DNA from: Candidatus Gottesmanbacteria bacterium
GTDB lineage: Bacteria; Patescibacteriota; Microgenomatia; UBA10105; UBA927
NCBI GenBank assembly: GCA_963790805.1
Contig: CAWBPL010000002.1
Location: forward strand, 384,696-448,695
Direction of reading: 5' to 3'
Length of the DNA stretch: 64,000 bases
The translations under genes and the position numbers were made by a program. This document shows, piece after piece, positions 1 through 10,951 of this stretch (the stretch's first letter is position 1; the number at the start of each line of letters is the position of its first letter). The notes beneath the pieces are model-generated. The model was given only the letters and a program-made list of their open reading frames with translations, had not been told where the DNA came from and made no database searches.

Positions 1-1458
1 GACTACGCGAAAAACCACAACTATACAATAGTTGGTATTTTCCGCGAGGAAGGTATATCCGGAGGCGTTATAGAAAGACCTCAAATGCAAAGGCTTCTTA
101 TTAGGCTTGAAGACTATAAAGATGAGTCTGATAAAACCATCGTCATCATTGACGACATCAAAAGACTAGCGCGAGACGTTCAGGGGCATTTTATACTGCG
201 TACGGCTATCAACTCCAGAAACGGAGATTTGGAAAGCCCGAGTCACCGGTTTGAAGATTCGCCGGAGGGAAAATTTGTGGAAACGGTGCTTGCCGGCGCT
301 GCAGAACTAGAACGGAATCAAAATAAACAACAGGTAATGAACCGCATGAAGGCTCGTGCGGAAATGGGACACTGGCCTTTCTGTCTTCCGCCTGGACTGA
401 AAAATCAAAAAAATCCAGTTCACGGAAAAGTCGCCCAACGAGACGAACCAATCGCCACTATCTTCAAATCCGCGATTGAAGGTTACCGAGACCGTATCCT
501 TCTTACACAACAAGACGTCATTTCATTTATACAAAACCAATACGAAAAGCAGGGAGTCAATCGCAAAATCTCACTACATGGAGTACAAAGTCTACTCACT
601 GAAATCCTTTACACGGGCTATATTGAATATCCGAAATGGAACATCTCCAGAAGAAAAGGTACCCATGACGGGTTCATCTCTTTGGAAACGTTTGAGGAGG
701 TACAAAAAATTCTCAACGATCGTACGAAGCCGAAAGTTCGCCGAGATACCAGCTCTAATTTTTCTTTAAGAGGACTTGTTCTTTGCTCTTTATGTCATAC
801 CCCTCTTACCGCGAGCCTCCATCACGGACGTAAAGGACAACTCTACCCCCACTATTTTTGCAGGAAACCGGGGTGTGAATTGAAAGACAAATCAGTACGC
901 AAGAAGGATCTTGAAAGTAGCTTCCTCGCCTATTTGGGATCAATAAAATTAGGAAAACCTGTGGCTAACCTCGCTTTGGCGGTTCTAACCGACGTATGGG
1001 ACCAACAACAAGCGCAACTTATCGAGGAACAACGCACAACTGAGTCCAAGAGGCAGGAAACCGAGCAAGCGATCTTTACGGTAAATACTCTCATCAGAAA
1101 AACAACCAACGAAAAACTTATACGGAACTATGAGAATGAACTTATAAGGCTACAGGAACAGAAAGAAAACCTGGAGAATACTAATATACCCACACACCAT
1201 ACTAAAGAACAATTTGGAACCGCTTCAGAGAAGGTGTTAAGCATTCTAGAAAATCCCGCCGATACGTGGCAAACCGGGGATTTGAACGACAGGTTAGCCG
1301 TCTATTTCATGCATTTTGACCAAAAACCGTCCTACGACCGAAACTTGGGATTTGGAACCGCTACTTTGGCGCAACCTGTAGCCATGATTCGCTCTTTGGG
1401 GAGCGAAAAAATACACAGTGTGGAGATGCCGGGTAATGAGCCCGGGTCCGAAAGTTAA
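1..1458 (+). CDS. Large serine recombinase (integrase type), 5' end cut by window edge
   Basis: Frame 1 is open from base 1 (DYAKNHNYTIVGIFREEGISGG...), so the ORF-track Met at 85 is internal. It has the C-terminal half of a resolvase catalytic domain (IVIIDDIKRLARD) and a recombinase domain (GHWPFCLPPGL...LYTGYIEYP). A Cys-pair zinc-ribbon-like motif (CSLCHTPL...YFCRKPGC) and a C-terminal coiled-coil stretch follow. Confidence 0.85.
   Translation, partial: DYAKNHNYTIVGIFREEGISGGVIERPQMQRLLIRLEDYKDESDKTIVIIDDIKRLARDVQGHFILRTAINSRNGDLESPSHRFEDSPEGKFVETVLAGAAELERNQNKQQVMNRMKARAEMGHWPFCLPPGLKNQKNPVHGKVAQRDEPIATIFKSAIEGYRDRILLTQQDVISFIQNQYEKQGVNRKISLHGVQSLLTEILYTGYIEYPKWNISRRKGTHDGFISLETFEEVQKILNDRTKPKVRRDTSSNFSLRGLVLCSLCHTPLTASLHHGRKGQLYPHYFCRKPGCELKDKSVRKKDLESSFLAYLGSIKLGKPVANLALAVLTDVWDQQQAQLIEEQRTTESKRQETEQAIFTVNTLIRKTTNEKLIRNYENELIRLQEQKENLENTNIPTHHTKEQFGTASEKVLSILENPADTWQTGDLNDRLAVYFMHFDQKPSYDRNLGFGTATLAQPVAMIRSLGSEKIHSVEMPGNEPGSES
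1..1458. mobile_element. Right-hand end of an integrated element docked at the tmRNA gene (extent to the left unknown)
   Basis: The recombinase gene abuts and overlaps the 3' end of ssrA, a classic island integration site. The element boundary should lie near 1421-1460. No second att copy is visible inside the window. Confidence 0.45.
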
Positions 1459-1832
1459 CATCAAAAACGTCTACAAGCGTAGTCCGTATAATTTCCCGCC
1501 AACCTCAATACGGACAAAATAATCAGCGGGAGTTTGACCAAAATTGCTCCGAGATCAACCGGTCACATTGATCTCTGACGTCCCGGCTGTTTTTCCACCT
1601 GACACCATTCACCGAGAAGAAATATGTATCAGATGCCGCTTAAACTTCTGCGAATGCAAACGTTCGTTGCGGAGAAATTCCGAGCATCTCTTGAATTGCT
1701 CCAAGTTCAGCAAGGAGTTCCTGTTTGCGTGATGTTATATCAGCAAATATGATTTGATAACGTTTTACGGCTCTTTTATCATCGCCGGCTTGCAGTTTTT
1801 AATGTACGACTCTCGTCGAATCATTCATCCCC
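1421..1832 (-). ncRNA. ssrA: tmRNA (SsrA)
   Basis: On the minus strand it starts GGGGATGAATGATTCGACGAGAG, the conserved tmRNA 5' motif. It ends GGACTACGCTTGTAGACG...TTTCGGACCCGGGCTCATTACCCGGCATCTCCA. The acceptor stem GGGGATG/CATCTCC carries a G3:U70 pair, and the T-arm is CCGGG-CTCATTA-CCCGG. It sits 2 nt downstream of the smpB stop. Length is 412 nt. CCA is not encoded. Confidence 0.85.
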
Positions 1833-1834
1833 AT

Positions 1835-2278
1835 TTATTTTACTTTTCCCCTGAATTCGCGTTCCAATTCCCTCTTCTGATCCTCTCGCCTCTTCGCTTC
1901 ACGTTTCTCGTACTGCTTTTTCCCTTTCGCAAGACCGATTTCCAGCTTGACAAGAGGCCCCTTAGTATACCAAGAGACGGGTATAAGGGTCAAATTGGCG
2001 CCTTCTATCCTACTTTTTAGGCTAAGGAGCTCCTTTTTATGCATCAAAAGCTTTCGTGTCCGCCTCGGATCGTAGCCTTCAGGACGGGCATAAATAAAGG
2101 GAAATATCTGTGCATTCACTAAATATGCCTCAGATCCGATAATTCGCACAAATGAGCCATCGAGCTTCGCGTGACCGCCTTTGAGCGATTTCACCTCAGC
2201 GCCGGTTAACTGGATACCCGATTCAATGCGCTCAAGAATCGTGTAATCATGGAAAGCTTTTTTGTTTGCGATATTCAT
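1835..2278 (-). CDS. smpB: SsrA-binding protein SmpB
   Basis: The 147-aa product shows typical SmpB sequence (NKKAFHDYTILERIESGIQLTGAEVKSLK...LLMHKKELLSL...KGKKQYEKRE) with a basic C-terminal tail. Confidence 0.95.
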   Translation of the reverse strand: MNIANKKAFHDYTILERIESGIQLTGAEVKSLKGGHAKLDGSFVRIIGSEAYLVNAQIFPFIYARPEGYDPRRTRKLLMHKKELLSLKSRIEGANLTLIPVSWYTKGPLVKLEIGLAKGKKQYEKREAKRREDQKRELEREFRGKVK

Positions 2279-2311
2279 ACATTGCCCACAAATGGACAGC
2301 CCTATTGTACG

Positions 2312-4144
2312 CTATTTCAAATCGATGGAGTAGATTTTACCGCCCGCAAGAAGAAATATTTTTTTCGCTTGCTCTGATACGGTTAACGCTGACGGGTTAA
2401 ACTTTTGGCTCCACTGATACTGAGCAAGATACGTACCGTCCTTATCCAGCACGACCACCCGATTGTTTTGGTTATCCAATACGTAGACATTATTGACACT
2501 ATCGCTTGTGTAAACCCGAAGATCCAATCCAAACGCAGGGGTCACCCCATGGGAAACGTATGGATTATCTCTTCCCTGCGTAAAACGAAGAATTTTCCCG
2601 TCCGTCGTCCCTATCCAAACCGATCCATCAATCGACATACCCGTCGCCCTTGATAGATCGGGAAGCGTATCAGAATTCAGATATTCATTGATAGTTGAAA
2701 ATCCGCTATCGGTAGCAACATATTTCCAAATTCTTCCTTTTTCCGTATCAAGAATATACAGGTTGCCACCGAATGAAACGAGCGTTGTAACGACTCCCCA
2801 TGAATCATCTTTCGTCACAACACGTTTTGAACTGCCGGTCGTTTCAGAAAATCCAATGACCCCATCACTTGTCAGCGCATATGTACTATCGCCATGTATC
2901 GCTACCGATTCTATCTGTTTGACGTTCGCGCCACCCCCTATGACCTGTGCGTTTTTTGACGTGATATCTATTTGATATACGGTTGAAGTTAATTGATCTC
3001 CAATTGCGAGCGTATTGCCATCAAGATCCATACTTGTGGCCGTCGCTCCTTTTTTTACAAGACTCATGTCATAAAAAAGCGCCGGTGAAATTTTAATTAT
3101 TTGCATTGATTGCGTCAGGTTGTCGGTAATTTTACGATACAATGTTTGCATCTCGTATCCTTCGGTCGTCTGAGTAGATATAGTATGAATATAGGGATCC
3201 AGTAATTGTTTGGCATACGTCAATCGCTCCCTACTTTTCACAGAATCCAACGGAGATAAAGCAACCCCCTCATCAAGTGCGTGTTGCGCATCAGACAGAG
3301 CTGACATAATTTGTTGATTTTTCTTCGCCGTTGCTTGTTTCCAAACGCCTAACACAACACTTATGGCAAAAAGTGACGTAAGAAAAATTACAAACGCGGC
3401 TTTCATTCTCTTGGGGTTTTGACGAAGGGTGGTAATGTATCTTTTTACTCGCGGCAGAGAAATAACACCAGCCACGTGTTTTGTCCATTGTTTCAAATTA
3501 TTTTGAACGGGTTCAATGGTGCTTTTCTCTTGAAGTAATGGAGATTCTTTTTTCTCTTCAACAACTACCTCTTCTCGTAACTGATCCTCCTGAAGTTCTG
3601 ACGCCTCATACACCAATGCGACACTTCCCTCTCCACCCTTTTTTTCATGCAGAAGAAGTGTCAATTTTTCGGCAACCTCCGAAGGCGGGAGATGATCAAA
3701 CAATGTCGTTAACTCATCATGAGAAAGCACCTGCGAAAAACCGTGTGACACTAAAAGAAACGTATCACCTTCACGTATTTCTCCCGAAACGCCGCCATCA
3801 TCATGCATAAGACTCGCAAGCTCATTTCTCCGTTTCACAAATACCCCTGCCCGACCCCGTAAAACAACATACGCAACCCGACCAACCGGAACAAACAACA
3901 CAAGACTTTGCACGACACTATTTAGAATTTTATCTGCTATTTCTTCAACAACCTGAAGGCTTGACACATCTCGACTCAACAACTCACTTAATAAAGAAAG
4001 TATCTGAACTCCCCGCTGCTGCGCTTGCTCTTGAGGATCTAAAATTTCAATAATACCGTAGGCGGTCGGCGTCACCAAGACCTGTCCCCAATGGGTTCCA
4101 TCAACCGGTCCCACGGCAAGACCTATGGATGATTTTATCCGCAT
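2312..4144 (-). CDS. Membrane protein: N-terminal PP2C-like (possibly degenerate) domain, one TM helix, C-terminal NHL-like beta-propeller
   Basis: The N-terminal third resembles the PP2C/SpoIIE fold pattern (VDGTHWGQ..., AYVVLRGRAGVFVKRRNEL..., GDTFLLVSHGF..., GSVALVY). A TM segment (AAFVIFLTSLFAISVVLGVW) follows. Repeated NHL-like strands come next (VYVLDNQNNRVVVLDKDGTYLAQY, LYILDTEKGRIWKY). Confidence 0.5.
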   Translation of the reverse strand: MRIKSSIGLAVGPVDGTHWGQVLVTPTAYGIIEILDPQEQAQQRGVQILSLLSELLSRDVSSLQVVEEIADKILNSVVQSLVLFVPVGRVAYVVLRGRAGVFVKRRNELASLMHDDGGVSGEIREGDTFLLVSHGFSQVLSHDELTTLFDHLPPSEVAEKLTLLLHEKKGGEGSVALVYEASELQEDQLREEVVVEEKKESPLLQEKSTIEPVQNNLKQWTKHVAGVISLPRVKRYITTLRQNPKRMKAAFVIFLTSLFAISVVLGVWKQATAKKNQQIMSALSDAQHALDEGVALSPLDSVKSRERLTYAKQLLDPYIHTISTQTTEGYEMQTLYRKITDNLTQSMQIIKISPALFYDMSLVKKGATATSMDLDGNTLAIGDQLTSTVYQIDITSKNAQVIGGGANVKQIESVAIHGDSTYALTSDGVIGFSETTGSSKRVVTKDDSWGVVTTLVSFGGNLYILDTEKGRIWKYVATDSGFSTINEYLNSDTLPDLSRATGMSIDGSVWIGTTDGKILRFTQGRDNPYVSHGVTPAFGLDLRVYTSDSVNNVYVLDNQNNRVVVLDKDGTYLAQYQWSQKFNPSALTVSEQAKKIFLLAGGKIYSIDLK

Positions 4145-4154
4145 ATAATTATCT

Positions 4155-4216
4155 TATCACGAAGGGGGTGAGTATCACGCGCGAAGAGGGTGAATATCAC
4201 GCACAAAGGGGTTAGA
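4155..4216. repeat. Three imperfect tandem direct repeats (TATCACG[CRCR]AAGRGGGTKAR) upstream of the 2312-4144 gene
   Basis: The copies are tatcacgaagggggtgag (4155-4172), tatcacgcgcgaagagggtgaa (4173-4194) and tatcacgcacaaaggggttaga (4195-4216). They lie 11-72 nt upstream of the start codon at 4144. The last copy overlaps the stop of the upstream small gene. Confidence 0.6.
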
Positions 4217-4433
4217 GAAGAATGAGCGCAAGAAAAAAAAGAAAAATAATAAGAGCAAGATGAACGTAGGTAAGAACTCGCAGAACCGGTTCAAACCCTT
4301 CTTCCAATACATGCGCCATCGTACTTTCCTGCCGAACCATGACTCCGGCAAATACAATATACACCGCGATACCAAGTAGTGTAAAAAGTTTTAAGATAAG
4401 CCACGCTTCTGGTGGAATCGTAACAGGTATCAT
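4212..4433 (-). CDS. Small two-TM membrane protein (function unknown)
   Basis: The 73-aa product has two hydrophobic helices. Its start overlaps the stop of the upstream gene by 4 nt (ATGA), which suggests translational coupling. Confidence 0.45.
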   Translation of the reverse strand: MIPVTIPPEAWLILKLFTLLGIAVYIVFAGVMVRQESTMAHVLEEGFEPVLRVLTYVHLALIIFLFFLALILL

Positions 4434-5086
4434 AGTGAATCCCCGCCTTTTTCTGTAAGAGACCGAATGGTTTCTACAACGCGTTCAGGATGAGGCACCT
4501 TCTCAAACACCAAATTTGGGGCTTCCCCCGCGGTTTCTATAATGACATCACCATAATCAAAAATAGCAGCAAAAATACCGCCGGCGTCAAATGATATATC
4601 CTGAATCTTGTTCAGCTCCGCCTCGGCAAAATGCTTATAGAGAAGATAATAAAAATCAATATCCACTATTCGCTCATTGGTGACAATGTAAATATTAATA
4701 AACCAACCCAGTAATTTTGCAAGCACAAATCCGAATGTTGCAATATACCAAAGGGCCGTGCCGATAAAAATATACCCGCTCGGTAACGGGAGTGAAATCC
4801 GAATAATAGTAAATAATATAGGAAATAAGAGAGTAGGCGCAATGGCAAGGACTATGGCAATAAGTACCCATGGAACATTGACAATAACGTGTTGACGCAA
4901 AAAGAGAACAACGGTTTCCTGTTCTTCCTGCGTTTCAAACCTAACCCCCTCGGGATTCATGGCAAAACTCGTCAACGGCCCCATTTCCCCTTGAACGCCG
5001 CTTGTAGCCGGCTTGGGGGTCGGACTATTTGTCATCGTCCCACTTTTTGGTGGAGCGCTGGATGAAGAATCAAAGATCGTTGGCAC
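4430..5086 (-). CDS. Membrane protein with bacterial PH (YdbS/YdbT-like, bPH_2) domain
   Basis: It has a Pro/Ser-rich N-terminus and two long TM helices. The C-terminal region (NERIVDIDFYYLL...ISFDAGGIFAAIFDYGDVIIETAG) is typical of bPH_2/DUF304 proteins. Confidence 0.55.
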   Translation of the reverse strand: MPTIFDSSSSAPPKSGTMTNSPTPKPATSGVQGEMGPLTSFAMNPEGVRFETQEEQETVVLFLRQHVIVNVPWVLIAIVLAIAPTLLFPILFTIIRISLPLPSGYIFIGTALWYIATFGFVLAKLLGWFINIYIVTNERIVDIDFYYLLYKHFAEAELNKIQDISFDAGGIFAAIFDYGDVIIETAGEAPNLVFEKVPHPERVVETIRSLTEKGGDSL

Positions 5087-5107: not shown

Positions 5108-6907
5108 CTATCTTTTCTCAACGTTATATAAAGGACCAACAATTTGAATATTGGCGGGCGCCCGAAGATTAAAATATGTTTTAAAATCGTTTCCATCAAA
5201 CGTATTGGTTCCCCCGTCACCAGATACCGACACGGTGGTCACCTGACCCGTACCCGTATTAAAGCTGATTGATACATCGCTTACTGATGTATACGGCGTT
5301 ATACCGCGGGACGACAACTCAGAGTGCACACAACCCGCATCCCACGTATCAACACCGTCGGGATTTGCCTTGTCTGTTTGAACCAGATGCTGTTGGGTAG
5401 AATTATCCCGTTTAGCCAATAGCAATACGTTGACGATATCGGCAACTTCTTCGGGCTTCAACCACGCAGTTCCGCCATAGGAACTTCTTCCTCCCCAGTC
5501 ACAATAAAACCATGGACTATTTTTGTCATACGCATTACTTCTCAAGTCTGAAAAACTTGAAACAGAACCGCTGGGAGTATCTATCATGCGCTTGGTGTAT
5601 GAAGTCGCTGACCATCCCTGCAAATCACCAGTATTATACGCGTACCCTCCGTGCGTTGAAGAAAAAAATGCTTTAATGGGATTACCACCCTGAACCATTA
5701 TTTGCGTTCCGGTATCATCAACTGCCTGATTCCAAGCTCCTCCTTTTTCCCCCGACTGAAACACCTGACAATATTGATTTGCACAGATCGACATGCTGCC
5801 GTTATTCGTGGTCGCCAAAACATATGAACGAATTGCAATTACCTGCGCCTTTAACGATTCGGCTGGCCAATCGATCGGAACTTCATATATTCGTTTCACA
5901 TAATCGTTCAATTTTCCGCTCCAGATGATGTTTCCCTGATTGACGCTATTACTGTCGTTCACTTTGATGGTTATATTAGAGTCAGCGCTCTGATACCCAT
6001 CAAAATTATAGTACGCGTGAAGAATAGAATCGGCGTTCTGACCTGCTTGCGCTCTTCCCAGCGCTCCATATTGATTTAACCCTACACGGTTGGGAACTCC
6101 AAACGTAAAAAACCCATATCCTCCACCAAACCCAGGATCTTTCCCGTTGGTTAAATCACTTGAGCACCCGCCACCACTTACAGCAAAAAGAGGGATTCCC
6201 AAACCCGCTAATTTTTCATTTAAAAACTCCTGCTGTCGAGCAGTAATCGCGGCAAGATATCCTTGAAGCTTCGATTCATACGCATTCACCTGATCGATAA
6301 GTTTTTGCACCTGCTGGGCCCGGCGGTCTGTATCTGCTTTCAGACTTGCAAGAGACGCTTTCTCATCTTCCAATGCCTTTTTGCGGTCTTCAAGATCTTT
6401 TACGCTCAACGCTGTTTGGGTAATCACCCGTTTATCTTCGTTCACTGCGGCTTGCTGATAGCCGATGGTTCGAAGAACCGAACCGATATCAACGGAAGAA
6501 AGAAGCAAATACATCGGGTTTGTCATAAAACTTCTGATATAAAACTGTCGTATTCGAACACTTGCAAGGGCGAGAGATGCCGAAAGACTCGTATCAAGTA
6601 CGGTAATTTCTTGAGTTTTGTTACTAACGTCGGCTTCAATGGTTTTAATGCGCGCTTCAAATGCGGCAATGGAACGGTTCATCTGGTCCAACTCGTCACG
6701 ACTGGGTTTTGCGGCTTTTTCAACATTGGCATATGCGTCATCGCACTTTGCACTAATAATCGTCAACTCATCACTATTGCACTGTTCAAGTTTGTCGGGA
6801 GTAACATTATCACAATTGAGATCGCACGCTTTCACGCGTTGCAGCACAATCCCACCCAACAAAACAAGAATACAGAGAGTAATGAATTTTTGTGCTTTGT
6901 TATACAT
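5108..6907 (-). CDS. SpoIID/LytB-domain peptidoglycan-remodelling protein with N-terminal coiled coil
   Basis: It has a signal/TM N-terminus and a coiled coil of about 200 aa. SpoIID-like motifs follow (LKAQVIAIRSYVLA, CANQYCQVFQSGEKG, IKAFFSSTHGGYAYN). Confidence 0.75.
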   Translation of the reverse strand: MYNKAQKFITLCILVLLGGIVLQRVKACDLNCDNVTPDKLEQCNSDELTIISAKCDDAYANVEKAAKPSRDELDQMNRSIAAFEARIKTIEADVSNKTQEITVLDTSLSASLALASVRIRQFYIRSFMTNPMYLLLSSVDIGSVLRTIGYQQAAVNEDKRVITQTALSVKDLEDRKKALEDEKASLASLKADTDRRAQQVQKLIDQVNAYESKLQGYLAAITARQQEFLNEKLAGLGIPLFAVSGGGCSSDLTNGKDPGFGGGYGFFTFGVPNRVGLNQYGALGRAQAGQNADSILHAYYNFDGYQSADSNITIKVNDSNSVNQGNIIWSGKLNDYVKRIYEVPIDWPAESLKAQVIAIRSYVLATTNNGSMSICANQYCQVFQSGEKGGAWNQAVDDTGTQIMVQGGNPIKAFFSSTHGGYAYNTGDLQGWSATSYTKRMIDTPSGSVSSFSDLRSNAYDKNSPWFYCDWGGRSSYGGTAWLKPEEVADIVNVLLLAKRDNSTQQHLVQTDKANPDGVDTWDAGCVHSELSSRGITPYTSVSDVSISFNTGTGQVTTVSVSGDGGTNTFDGNDFKTYFNLRAPANIQIVGPLYNVEKR

Positions 6908-8489: not shown

Positions 8490-9470
8490 CTAAAATAAAT
8501 GGGTATCCGTTAATACGGTTCCGGCGCTTGGTTTATTCAGCAACACGGATTGTACACCCGAACACGCTTTCAGCGCATCCGCTACCCGCATCGCATTGTT
8601 CGCTTCGCAAATACAATGGACATTGGGTCCAGCGTCAATCGTAAAATACACGGGAATCCCCTGAGTCCGTAAATCCCCAACACATTCAATGCACTTCATC
8701 GTTCCCTGATTCCAATAAAAGAGCGACGGCACCTGCGTCATCATGACCGCATGCATGGAAAGACAATCCGCTTCAATCGCTTCTCCCAATAATCGAATAT
8801 CTTTTGATTGCATCGCATCTCTTACTTGTTGTAACCTGTTTGGAACATCGAGGAATCTCTTTTTCCAAAATGGACTCGTTGTTGCCTTATCCATCCCGTC
8901 GGTACTTGTTACTTCTTTTGATCTCTTCTCGACAATAGCAAGAACATCACACAAATCCCAGTGTGTTGATGGATACAAGGAATAGGCATAAGATTCCTCT
9001 GACGTTCCTCCCGTTTTCCACTCAACAAACCCGTCTGGAATAGAACGACATGCTGATCCGGAACCAATACGCGCCAATACCGTTAATTCTTTTCCGCTGA
9101 GCGATAGTCCTAAAGCTGCGGCGGCAGCAACGGTGAGCGCAGCAAATCCCGATGCAGACGATGCAATCCCTGTTCCTTTTGGAAAGGTATTCGATGTTAC
9201 GATCTTTGCACAAAGAGTGCTTTGCGCAATTCTTCGAATCCGATCAAGATGGGAAATAATGCGATTCACTTCTTGTTCCGAAAATATACCATCCGCTAAA
9301 ACAACACTATCGTGAGCATGTGCTTGAGAAAACTCGACGGTAGTCGTCGTTGTCGTGCCGGATAGATTCATGGAAATAGATGAATTTGCCGGAATTCTTA
9401 AAGCATCATGTATTTTACCCCAATATTTGATAAATGCGATGTTTGCCGGTGCTGTCGCCGTTTTTTTCAT
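8490..9470 (-). CDS. mvaD: Diphosphomevalonate decarboxylase
   Basis: The N-terminus is APANIAFIKYWGK, followed by GHMP-type GTGIASSASGFAAL. It overlaps the upstream gene by 4 nt. Confidence 0.9.
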   Translation of the reverse strand: MKKTATAPANIAFIKYWGKIHDALRIPANSSISMNLSGTTTTTTVEFSQAHAHDSVVLADGIFSEQEVNRIISHLDRIRRIAQSTLCAKIVTSNTFPKGTGIASSASGFAALTVAAAAALGLSLSGKELTVLARIGSGSACRSIPDGFVEWKTGGTSEESYAYSLYPSTHWDLCDVLAIVEKRSKEVTSTDGMDKATTSPFWKKRFLDVPNRLQQVRDAMQSKDIRLLGEAIEADCLSMHAVMMTQVPSLFYWNQGTMKCIECVGDLRTQGIPVYFTIDAGPNVHCICEANNAMRVADALKACSGVQSVLLNKPSAGTVLTDTHLF

Positions 9471-10951
9471 ACCAGTATCCCCGCTTCTTTGAGCGCTACT
9501 TCCGCTCCTTTTGTTAACTGGATTTTTCTGCTCACAACGTCAAACCGAAGTTCCCGGATATCAAAATATTGCACGCTATCGACCTCTTCGGGATGTAGAG
9601 TAAACGGTCCGTCGCTTTGTCCTTTATATATCGCTGCGCGCTCGGTTTCTTTCTCATCCCGTACCATACATGTTTTTAAAAAGGTTAACGGCACATCAAT
9701 ACCCAATTCTTCCGATAATTCACGGTGCACCGCTTCATCATCTGTCTGACCTTTCGTCACGTGGCCGGCGGAGGATATTCCCCATAATCCCGGATCCATG
9801 TCTTTGGTCATACTCCGCTTTTGCAAAAGAAGTCTTCCCGCATGATCAAACAATAATACGCCAACCGTCCGATGGATAAGTGTCGGGTTGTGGTGACATT
9901 CAAAGCGCGTTTTATATCCAACAACCGTATCGCTTTCGTCAACAACAATGAAAAGTTCGTCCTGATTATCGGTAGTCTCAACACGTACGCCCTGCGCATC
10001 GGGAAGAACATCCATCACTTGCCCCCCTGCTTTTTGAATTGCCTCTGCAACAAGCGCACATTTGTCTTTTGCAGCAAGGGCAATCATGCAATCACCGCCG
10101 CCGGCTCCCGAAAGTTTTGCTCCCCATGCACCGGCACCTTTGGCTGCGCTCACGAGTGATTCCAACTTCTCGGAGCTTACTCCTAAATCGCGAAGATAGT
10201 CCTGATTAAAATCCATAAGTCGCCCGACACGCTCCCAGTCTCCTTCCAAAATTCTTGCTTTTGCTTCAACGACAAGTTTTTCTATCGCCTGAAATATCCG
10301 ATCAACTTTTTGGGGGTATGCCTTTCGCTTTTCGGCAACCATCGTTACTAACTGTGCCGTGTCCGCTTTTACTCCCGTATACCCGACAATGAGAGGTATT
10401 GAGGAAATCTTTATTGGTTCTATGACTTTCCCACCGCCAACAAAAACAATTGTTCCCCCCCAGATTGCTGCTGCAACATCAAATCCAGATCCTACACCTT
10501 GAACATCCAAAATAGTTTTATAGGCAATATCAAAAAGCTGTTTTTGAGACAATGGTGTGCAAGTAATCGATGCGAGCGCAAAAAGCACTGCAACGGTTGT
10601 TGCCGATGAAGATCCAAAACCAAAGGTTGAAGAAAAGCCTGCGTGCGTTTCAATACGGATTCCCGACGGAAGCGGATATCGTTCAACAAAATTTCGAACG
10701 GCAAATTCTGCAAACTGCGCCTGTTTGGGAATTTCACCGATCCCAAGATCTTTTATTGGCTTTTTATATCCCTTAATGTGTATGTCCGAAGCTTCCAGTT
10801 GAAAATCTGCTGAATCAATTAGGGAAGCAGATGCATGAATTCTTTGATCAACTGCAGTTACAAGACTCGAGTATCCATAGACAACCGCATGATCCCCCAT
10901 GAGAAGTAATTTTCCCGGAGCACTCACGCTTATGGATTGGTTATTTTTCAT
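9467..10951 (-). CDS. Phosphomevalonate kinase (GHMP) fused to a C-terminal Nudix / type-1 IPP-isomerase-like domain
   Basis: The N-terminal ~330 aa carry APGKLLLMGDHAVVYG, GFGSSSATTVA and QGVGSGFDVAAAIWGG (PMK-like). The C-terminal ~165 aa carry HHNPTLIHRTVGVLLF...LLLQKRS..KD..PGLWGISSAGHV...EAVHRELSEELGI, which aligns with E. coli Idi and the Nudix box. I place the start at ATG 10951, preceded by AAGGGA. The ORF-track GTG at 10972 is also possible. Confidence 0.8.
   Translation of the reverse strand: MKNNQSISVSAPGKLLLMGDHAVVYGYSSLVTAVDQRIHASASLIDSADFQLEASDIHIKGYKKPIKDLGIGEIPKQAQFAEFAVRNFVERYPLPSGIRIETHAGFSSTFGFGSSSATTVAVLFALASITCTPLSQKQLFDIAYKTILDVQGVGSGFDVAAAIWGGTIVFVGGGKVIEPIKISSIPLIVGYTGVKADTAQLVTMVAEKRKAYPQKVDRIFQAIEKLVVEAKARILEGDWERVGRLMDFNQDYLRDLGVSSEKLESLVSAAKGAGAWGAKLSGAGGGDCMIALAAKDKCALVAEAIQKAGGQVMDVLPDAQGVRVETTDNQDELFIVVDESDTVVGYKTRFECHHNPTLIHRTVGVLLFDHAGRLLLQKRSMTKDMDPGLWGISSAGHVTKGQTDDEAVHRELSEELGIDVPLTFLKTCMVRDEKETERAAIYKGQSDGPFTLHPEEVDSVQYFDIRELRFDVVSRKIQLTKGAEVALKEAGILV

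Follow-up and report, generated by a model that had tools for sequence, protein, structure and literature searches.

When the gene for a large serine recombinase runs on to its stop codon inside the 3′ end of the gene for transfer-messenger RNA (tmRNA), where does the mobile element end and the host begin, and what does integration do to the two genes that meet there? We sought to answer this question for a stretch of 64,000 nucleotides from Candidatus Gottesmanbacteria bacterium (contig CAWBPL010000002.1, positions 384,696 to 448,695; hereafter the window), which opens with such an overlap. Window positions 1–1419 very probably form the right end of a small genomic island from a Microgenomates-like member of the Candidate Phyla Radiation (CPR), whose recombinase crosses an attachment site within its own gene (attP) with the bacterial site (attB) at the 3′ tip of the tmRNA gene. 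With attP placed within the coding sequence of the enzyme, integration swaps a conserved C-terminal helix for a tail that is antisense to tmRNA. The main addition of this analysis is that the recombinase exists as two isoforms, dependent on integration state. The features at the overlap are the following.

1–1458, plus strand: large serine recombinase, 3′ part, integrated form (residues 30–514 of the 514-aa database protein P0001).
1–1419: right-hand end of the island (P arm of attP and recombinase body), bounded by the end of identity to the empty-site contig L088.
1420–1424: crossover core, GTGGA on the plus strand and TCCAC on the tmRNA strand.
1425–1458, plus strand: host-derived end of the recombinase open reading frame (ORF), comprising the last base of a Glu codon, MPGNEPGSES and the stop, antisense to the tmRNA T-arm.
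1421–1832, minus strand: ssrA, the tmRNA gene, intact (Rfam, 104.9 bits), with a tag ORF and identical in the empty-site allele.

The recombinase ORF occupies frame 1 of the plus strand, is open at the left edge of the window and closes with TAA at 1456–1458. It is 100% identical to residues 30–514 of P0001, the first 29 codons lying left of the window. Its 502 island-encoded residues are followed by V-E-MPGNEPGSES, and the last 12 codons (1420–1455), which read VEMPGNEPGSES, spell out, in reverse complement, the T-arm and the 3′ acceptor strand of tmRNA; recombinase and tmRNA overlap by 38 nt (1421–1458). A first-pass annotation of this DNA had given the ORF end as 1458, the tmRNA 3′ end as 1421 and the last 12 codons as antisense, all of which proved accurate to the base. 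The overlap is not due to chance, because about 100 of the 120 closest database homologues end in the same kind of in-frame antisense-T-arm peptide, such as VEMPG[IVN]EPGS. On the tmRNA side, Rfam family RF00023 matches 1418–1832 on the minus strand over model positions 1–374, the full model, with 104.9 bits (E 6e-40) against a gathering score of 47. The match extends to 1418 because CCA is part of the model; the window does not encode it, and the genome reads CAC at 1420–1418. In the acceptor stem, 5′ GGGGAUG is paired with 3′ CAUCUCC, base 1421 is the discriminator A, and the gene carries a plausible, long tag ORF that resembles those in related tmRNAs. ARAGORN called no tmRNA in the window, a false negative that the Rfam match settles. 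The same program also misses the tmRNAs of related loci L001, L004 and L008, which together with that of the window score 85–115 bits in Rfam. The predicted tag of the window tmRNA is unusually long and ends in ...FAFAEV instead of the usual ...A-x-A-A.

An overlap conserved in this way, even to its frame relative to the T-arm and across the whole family, might also be expected of a fixed, domesticated recombinase beside ssrA, retained because the gene now belongs to the host. The host genes on the other side of tmRNA bear on this explanation.

1835–2278, minus strand: smpB, the host partner of tmRNA, directly upstream of it (PF01668, 2.5e-46).
2312–4144, minus strand: gene for a 610-aa lineage-specific host protein, the synteny anchor for empty and occupied sites.

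A look-up through SmpB found L088, a 2,917-nt contig of a public read assembly without the recombinase. It matches window positions 1419–4239 with 100% identity (0 mismatches in 2,821 nt) and holds the 610-aa neighbor gene, smpB and the whole tmRNA, then turns unrelated exactly at window position 1419. Because it matches fully up to that point and diverges at the recombinase, the same strain exists without the island, and it is the recombinase side that constitutes the island, the rest of which lies left of the window, as the first-pass annotation had it. L088 breaks only 95 nt past tmRNA (2822–2917 of the contig), the pattern expected if occupied and empty alleles coexist and the assembly graph branches at the junction. 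With the 610-aa neighbor as anchor, a synteny search of related metagenomic contigs for target sites yielded six more empty sites, in which a comF-like gene directly follows tmRNA, and three occupied sites; the smpB–tmRNA order is kept in L001, L004 and the empty sites. Occupied relatives share the same two host flanks and differ in cargo, with a Gp49/helix-turn-helix (HTH) pair in L001 and a DUF2326 protein in L004, and related islands range from 3.4 to 10.6 kb. One further locus, L105, is a circular contig of about 4.2 kb (127-nt terminal overlap) without tmRNA, in which attP is intact inside the recombinase ORF as AGTCTG-GTGGA-CATCGC.

These observations indicate that the window island is a real mobile island. 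Set against the same-strain empty allele, the six other empty sites, cargo and island size that differ between the same flanks, the circular attP contig and a recombinase phylogeny that crosses phyla and different tRNA and tmRNA gene (tDNA) targets, domestication is highly improbable. The first-pass annotation had taken the absence of a duplicated tmRNA fragment together with a lack of accessory genes to the left, or else an overlap conserved in all relatives, as signs against an island. A duplicated fragment is indeed absent and the overlap is conserved in relatives, yet mobility stands regardless: the overlap is conserved because attP lies inside the ORF in the whole family and not through domestication, and a displaced tmRNA copy is not expected of a serine recombinase. 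An exact search of viral contigs for the window island end gave no match. L107, a linear attP-form contig, ends (5552–5611) in a second, slightly different copy of the attP region at 4960–5000, comprising the hairpin, GTGGA core and tail start; repetition in the assembly, variation within the population or a tandem arrangement of elements may account for it.

The window protein is a large serine recombinase, with resolvase and recombinase domains and a zinc ribbon bearing a coiled-coil insertion. The N-terminal catalytic domain is identified by PF00239 (Resolvase, 3.5e-17), while PF07508 (Recombinase, 20.5 bits, cutoff 21.1) and PF13408 (Zn_ribbon_recom, 24.6 bits, cutoff 25.3) are both borderline. 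The N-terminus of P0001 reads MRALIYCRVSSERQ; R8, S10 and S11 are invariant in family alignment A1, and the catalytic serine lies left of the window. Zinc-ribbon cysteines C291, C294, C316 and C321 are invariant across 32 sequences, the AlphaFold model of homologue P0079 contains long paired helices (347–395 and 399–423), and the recombinase matches the PHROG 95 integrase at 2e-57. Among named families the closest by sequence is NCBIfam NF047343 (CcrB) at 92 bits, far below the equivalog cutoff of 900, and we rejected assignment as an equivalog of CcrB from the staphylococcal cassette SCCmec on that ground. By sequence, the enzyme is CcrB/XisF-like but far below equivalog cutoffs. The sole detectable match in the PDB comparison is the TP901-1 catalytic domain, and the best match in the species-representative genome set is 53% identical.

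Comparison with relatives that lack the recombinase, which had been proposed at the outset as a way of defining attB, was made with L088 and with the pair formed by L100 (empty) and L095 (occupied). In tmRNA orientation, the sites of this pair read as follows.

attB: GTCTCCAC joined to TATAATAG
tmRNA-side junction: GTCTCCAC joined to ACTAGATA
Far junction: GATGTCCAC joined to TATAATAG

TCCAC is the only sequence common to all three. The GTGGA/TCCAC core occurs at both junctions in about 21 loci, and the block of identity between junctions measures 5–8 bp in 15 of 18; sites that share so few base pairs, with no long direct repeats, have the short form characteristic of large serine recombinases. 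In the window strain the block is TGTGGA (1419–1424), such that DNA up to and including 1419 is island and DNA from 1425 onward is host. The core corresponds to the tmRNA acceptor end, U70-C71-C72-A73, plus one base. Because the exchange point falls at the discriminator base, the empty and occupied alleles encode the same mature tmRNA and differ just in its 3′ trailer. The first-pass annotation had expected integration to alter the tmRNA 3′ end, which is not borne out, as a crossover at 1420–1424 at the acceptor tip touches the trailer alone. For the window strain the corresponding sequences are these.

L088-type flank, tmRNA strand: ...AGTCAGTAGCCGATG
L088 flank, reverse complement: ...CATCGGCTACTGACT
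attB as expected: ...CTCCACAG joined to TCAGTAGCC
attL/attP as expected, the window junction being attR: ...AATACACAGT-GTGGA-C...

Short junctions also decide against a classical tDNA island inserted by a tyrosine integrase, in which attP would carry a copy of the tmRNA 3′ end and a displaced fragment would remain at the far end. tmRNA 3′ ends are classic targets of such islands (PMC4383910), the junctions of one locus, L012, share a 20-bp block, and the first-pass annotation had anticipated a displaced copy of 20–60 nt. Such a copy is the signature of a tyrosine integrase. None of 13 nt or more was found within 10 kb in L001 or L004, where the search returned only chance matches of at most 13 nt, and the relatives' islands contain no tyrosine integrase. 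For this subfamily we therefore rejected an Islander-type tDNA island, which, given junction identities of 5–8 bp, has next to no probability. The T-loop, where Dehalococcoides islands insert, could also be the site of crossover in L012. In L038 the two junctions have 21 bp in common, reaching toward the island side; a tandem or secondary event could explain this.

The arms flanking the core differ in their conservation among reconstructed and observed attachment sites. No conservation is seen in the B arm, which is the tmRNA 3′ flank. In the B′ arm, which is tmRNA antisense, the antisense T-loop TTGAACC occupies +12 to +18 relative to the core; in the P′ arm, TTGGAACC with the W-N codons occupies +16 to +23. 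The shared motif is thus offset outward by 4–5 bp in attP compared with attB. In the large serine recombinases phiC31, Bxb1 and LI, the motif bound by the zinc-ribbon domain is likewise located 4–5 bp further out in attP than in attB. By this analogy the zinc-ribbon domain presumably recognizes the antisense T-loop motif, as TTGAACC in B′ and as TTGGAACC in P′. A search for dyad symmetry between the P and P′ arms gave nothing convincing beyond the TTG(G)AACC motif common to P′ and B′. The P arm contains one further feature.

1390–1405: GC-rich hairpin (CGCTC-TTTGGG-GAGCG) within recombinase coding DNA, at a distance of 15 nt from the core; a T-run on the tmRNA-sense strand occupies 1406–1411.

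In L009, L013, L020 and L029 the equivalent hairpin is a canonical terminator of stem plus U-run on the tmRNA-sense strand, 3–4 nt after the core, whereas in the window subfamily the U-run precedes the stem. The canonical form is confined to that one other subfamily, and we dropped the core-adjacent hairpin as a general family feature. Judging from these sequences, an island-borne hairpin may provide a replacement 3′ processing or termination signal for the one that integration displaces from ssrA.

What, then, is the native end of the recombinase? Circularization in silico at the core of the four closest islands (L001, L004, L008 and L095) continues the recombinase ORF in frame for exactly 47 codons in all four cases; VDIVAEHWNRITEYIWRWYPLLTHAVFVPPNRYKYANLPASLSHVGV is an example of the restored tail. 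A hidden Markov model (HMM) built on the tail detects the displaced segment in about 25 further CPR loci; in every case it lies upstream of the recombinase and on the same strand. The tails there span 28–62 codons and share the motif VD....WNQI..YIFKWY. About 12 of the 120 closest homologues carry the native tail contiguously, among them P0079 (...LVDIAGQSWNQIQDYIFKWYAVL...), and these sit on small contigs without tmRNA. In the AlphaFold model of P0079 (mean predicted local distance difference test score 87.7), the core-encoded residues 498–504 form a disordered linker and residues 505–538 a single long helix. By analogy with the four closest islands, the native window protein would have about 549 residues. 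Integrated forms end instead in a short tail, of 12 to 37 aa, that is rich in Pro, Gly, Glu and Ser and has its sequence set by the host tmRNA. The first-pass annotation had proposed that the ORF reads across the attachment junction and that its C-terminus changes on excision, and the circularized relatives and L105 bear this out. It did not notice that a conserved native C-terminus gives way to the antisense tail.

The sequence of events would accordingly read as follows in the model we propose. The recombinase would recombine its own in-gene attP with attB at the extreme 3′ tip of tmRNA, crossing over in GTGGA/TCCAC. Integration would cut the recombinase gene in the linker, about 45 codons before the native stop, and leave the last segment, with the conserved C-terminal helix, at the far end of the island, while the chromosomal copy would read into the tmRNA T-arm antisense, ending in this genome with VEMPGNEPGSES and a stop. 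Excision to the circle would restore the full-length gene. The far junction of the window genome presumably has the same structure as those of its relatives.

A different reading of the same overlap accepts that the island is mobile and treats both the antisense end and the circle-form tail as incidental read-through, with a functional protein that ends near residue 500. McMurdie et al. considered the same for DsiB, a recombinase whose post-junction sequence diverges in length and sequence (2011, PMC3146451). The variable length of the integrated tails (12–37 aa) and the position of the core in a predicted disordered linker fit this explanation. However, the native tail has a fixed length of 47 codons in the close subfamily, its motif is kept across about 30 diverged islands, and it is predicted as a confident helix. 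Its coding frame is the only frame without stop codons, and the ratio of non-synonymous to synonymous substitution rates (dN/dS) is 0.31–0.56 in that frame for the closer pairs, compared to about 1 in two control frames. The DYIFKWY codons differ synonymously among islands. By these sequence measures, the native tail behaves as coding sequence, which makes incidental read-through unlikely.

Several points weigh against an in-gene attP with a native, functional tail. The dN/dS values come from just 47 codons, and one distant pair gives 0.93. Part of the tail conservation, that of TTGGAACC, could reflect constraint on the attachment site at the DNA level and not on the protein. The native tail and far junction of the window copy are read by analogy from relatives that are 53–66% identical. 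The L012 junctions share 20 bp (GTGGAGATGCCGGGAGTTGA; at about 4720 and 11490), and the crossover position is therefore not uniform in the family. Finally, both forms of the recombinase are predicted, putatively active enzymes.

By inference, the exchange of tails may have a functional consequence, such as directionality control or protein stability. The C-terminal swap may, as a tentative and rather doubtful proposal drawn from sequence comparison, act as a built-in sensor of integration state, with isoforms that differ in directionality or stability. The circle would encode the native helix and the chromosome an unstructured tmRNA-antisense tail; the two isoforms would differ as integrase versus excision-competent enzyme, acting with a small protein of about 50 aa encoded next to the recombinase. 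If true, this would be a serine recombinase with intrinsic directionality control and without a classical regulatory circuit, and the same logic would apply across CPR bacteria and Proteobacteria at genes for tmRNA and for tRNA-Ala, -Ser, -Tyr and -Arg. The native C-termini of circle forms end in an ssrA-like ALAA in P0111 and P0113, and in [SP]H[VI]G[VLF] in the window subfamily (L001, L004, L008 and L095). These endings hint that integration would strip the protein of a degron or recognition motif at its C-terminus.

The family extends well beyond the window lineage, with at least 526 related loci confirmed in a scan of species-representative genomes. CPR members stand tail-to-tail on tmRNA or on tRNA-Ala, and in an Rfam/ARAGORN scan of CPR loci all 21 with enough sequence are convergent on, and overlap, tmRNA. 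The two targets have the TCCAC core in common because both possess a G3·U70 acceptor end. Alphaproteobacterial members are found on tRNA-Ala, -Ser, -Tyr and -Arg, their ORFs reading 40–60 nt into the tRNA antisense. Examples from loci L045–L087 are listed here.

L052, 11502–11577: tRNA-Ala
L056, 4001–4090: tRNA-Ser
L058, 11499–11582: tRNA-Tyr
L060, 5394–5470: tRNA-Arg

Cultured proteobacterial carriers include Roseovarius marisflavi, Rhodovulum bhavnagarense, Paracoccus sp. M683, Oceanibium sediminis, Cribrihabitans neustonicus and Nitratireductor aquibiodomus. Within 10 kb of the alphaproteobacterial loci, no far junction was detected with the tail HMM, perhaps because of larger islands or diverged tails. 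Evidence for restoration of the native tail is confined to the CPR branch.

The small protein mentioned above is encoded by a conserved ORF of about 50 aa that runs over the start codon of the recombinase in almost every CPR island and in the circle, with the consensus ITI..AR..LG.K...[ML][TS]DKQ[IV]E..L..L..LC. Besides about 15 other loci, its positions are as follows.

L001: 9855–10004
L004: about 9852–10004
L105: 927–1094
L106: 696–869
L107: 3316–3489

Because L030 has a classical excisionase-type HTH protein at the same position, the small protein is, on sequence grounds, a candidate recombination directionality factor. Neither the small upstream ORFs nor the cargo of L105, the circular contig, matched anything in NCBIfam or PHROGs. 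LOOT RNA, an orphan structured RNA (RF03000, 71–85 bits), lies in or beside some islands, at 9285–9400 (minus strand) in L001, 8660–8776 (minus strand) in L004 and L006, and 465–572 (plus strand) in L020. It was rejected as a core island component and regarded as occasional cargo, being absent from 10 other islands or circles (attP-form contigs). Our literature searches found no description of this recombinase family in CPR bacteria.

For the insertion of large DNA segments, serine integrases are the principal tools, and the control of their directionality is a central question. The family described here, present in the CPR and in cultured Alphaproteobacteria, combines targeting of the acceptor tip through a 5-bp core with an enzyme whose C-terminus reports integration state, and gives a testable model of isoform-based control of directionality or stability. 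Its members are natural integrases for a near-universal site whose function is preserved, and are of interest for engineering CPR bacteria, which are currently without genetic tools. They also call for a correction of annotation: databases contain mostly integrated forms (about 100 of the 120 closest homologues), which end in host tRNA or tmRNA antisense and not in the native C-terminus.

The closest published system is that of the ssrA-specific islands of Dehalococcoides, in which DsiB, a CcrB-like large serine recombinase, integrates at ssrA (McMurdie et al. 2011, PMC3146451). The DsiB ORF always overlaps the attachment site and can run antisense into ssrA; only on the circle, in the authors' speculation, would the gene be complete or fully functional (PMC3146451). 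The window island shares the CcrB-like recombinase at ssrA and the ORF that overlaps the attachment site, DsiB being compared here by its description only. The two systems differ in several respects. DsiB islands have a 20-bp direct repeat with insertion in the T-loop, whereas here a core of 5–6 bp lies at the acceptor tip and L012 alone has a 20-bp block. The DsiB module of a small serine recombinase (DsiA), parB, mom and an embedded tRNA-like gene is not found in the relatives' islands, which instead carry the non-recombinase ORF of about 50 aa coupled to the recombinase together with varied cargo; the module of the window island itself is out of view. The DsiB protein sequence after the junction was reported as divergent, with no defined native tail, whereas a conserved C-terminal segment is seen here on circular and linear attP contigs. 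The taxonomic and target range is also much wider here.

Other systems share single elements of this arrangement. CcrA/CcrB of SCCmec insert at the 3′ end of rlmH/orfX, an essential housekeeping gene that is left functional. The window island resembles SCCmec in its use of the 3′ end of a target gene whose function is kept, but SCCmec has a protein-coding target, requires the partner CcrA and does not have its attachment site inside ccrB. Archaeal integrases of the SSV1 type do have attP inside the integrase gene, which is partitioned upon integration into a tRNA gene and is intact only on the episome. These are tyrosine recombinases, and the partition produces two large fragments and inactivates the enzyme, whereas in the window family just the last ~45 residues are exchanged and the catalytic and DNA-binding domains stay intact. 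In the integration-dependent immunity of mycobacteriophages, attP reportedly lies in a phage gene whose C-terminus is changed by integration with removal of an ssrA-like degradation tag, as Broussard and colleagues are said to have described in 2013. There the split gene encodes the repressor and the integrase is a tyrosine recombinase, and it is protein stability that is tied to integration state. A degron role of the tail in the present family is, by analogy, a hypothesis prompted by the two circle-type members that end in ALAA.

Among serine integrases, phiC31, Bxb1 and A118/LI have an intergenic attP and usually target protein-coding genes or intergenic DNA. They have the same domain order as the present family, a similarly short core identity and a recognition motif further out in attP, and we know of no integration-dependent change described for the C-terminus of these enzymes themselves. 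Islander-type islands, which encode tyrosine integrases, resemble the present ones in targeting the 3′ ends of tDNAs and preserving the target gene; there, the tDNA is regenerated from an island-borne copy and a displaced fragment is left behind (PMC4383910). The same publication states that serine recombinases do not target tRNA-type genes (PMC4383910), a statement that the targeting of tRNA genes by proteobacterial members of this family contradicts.

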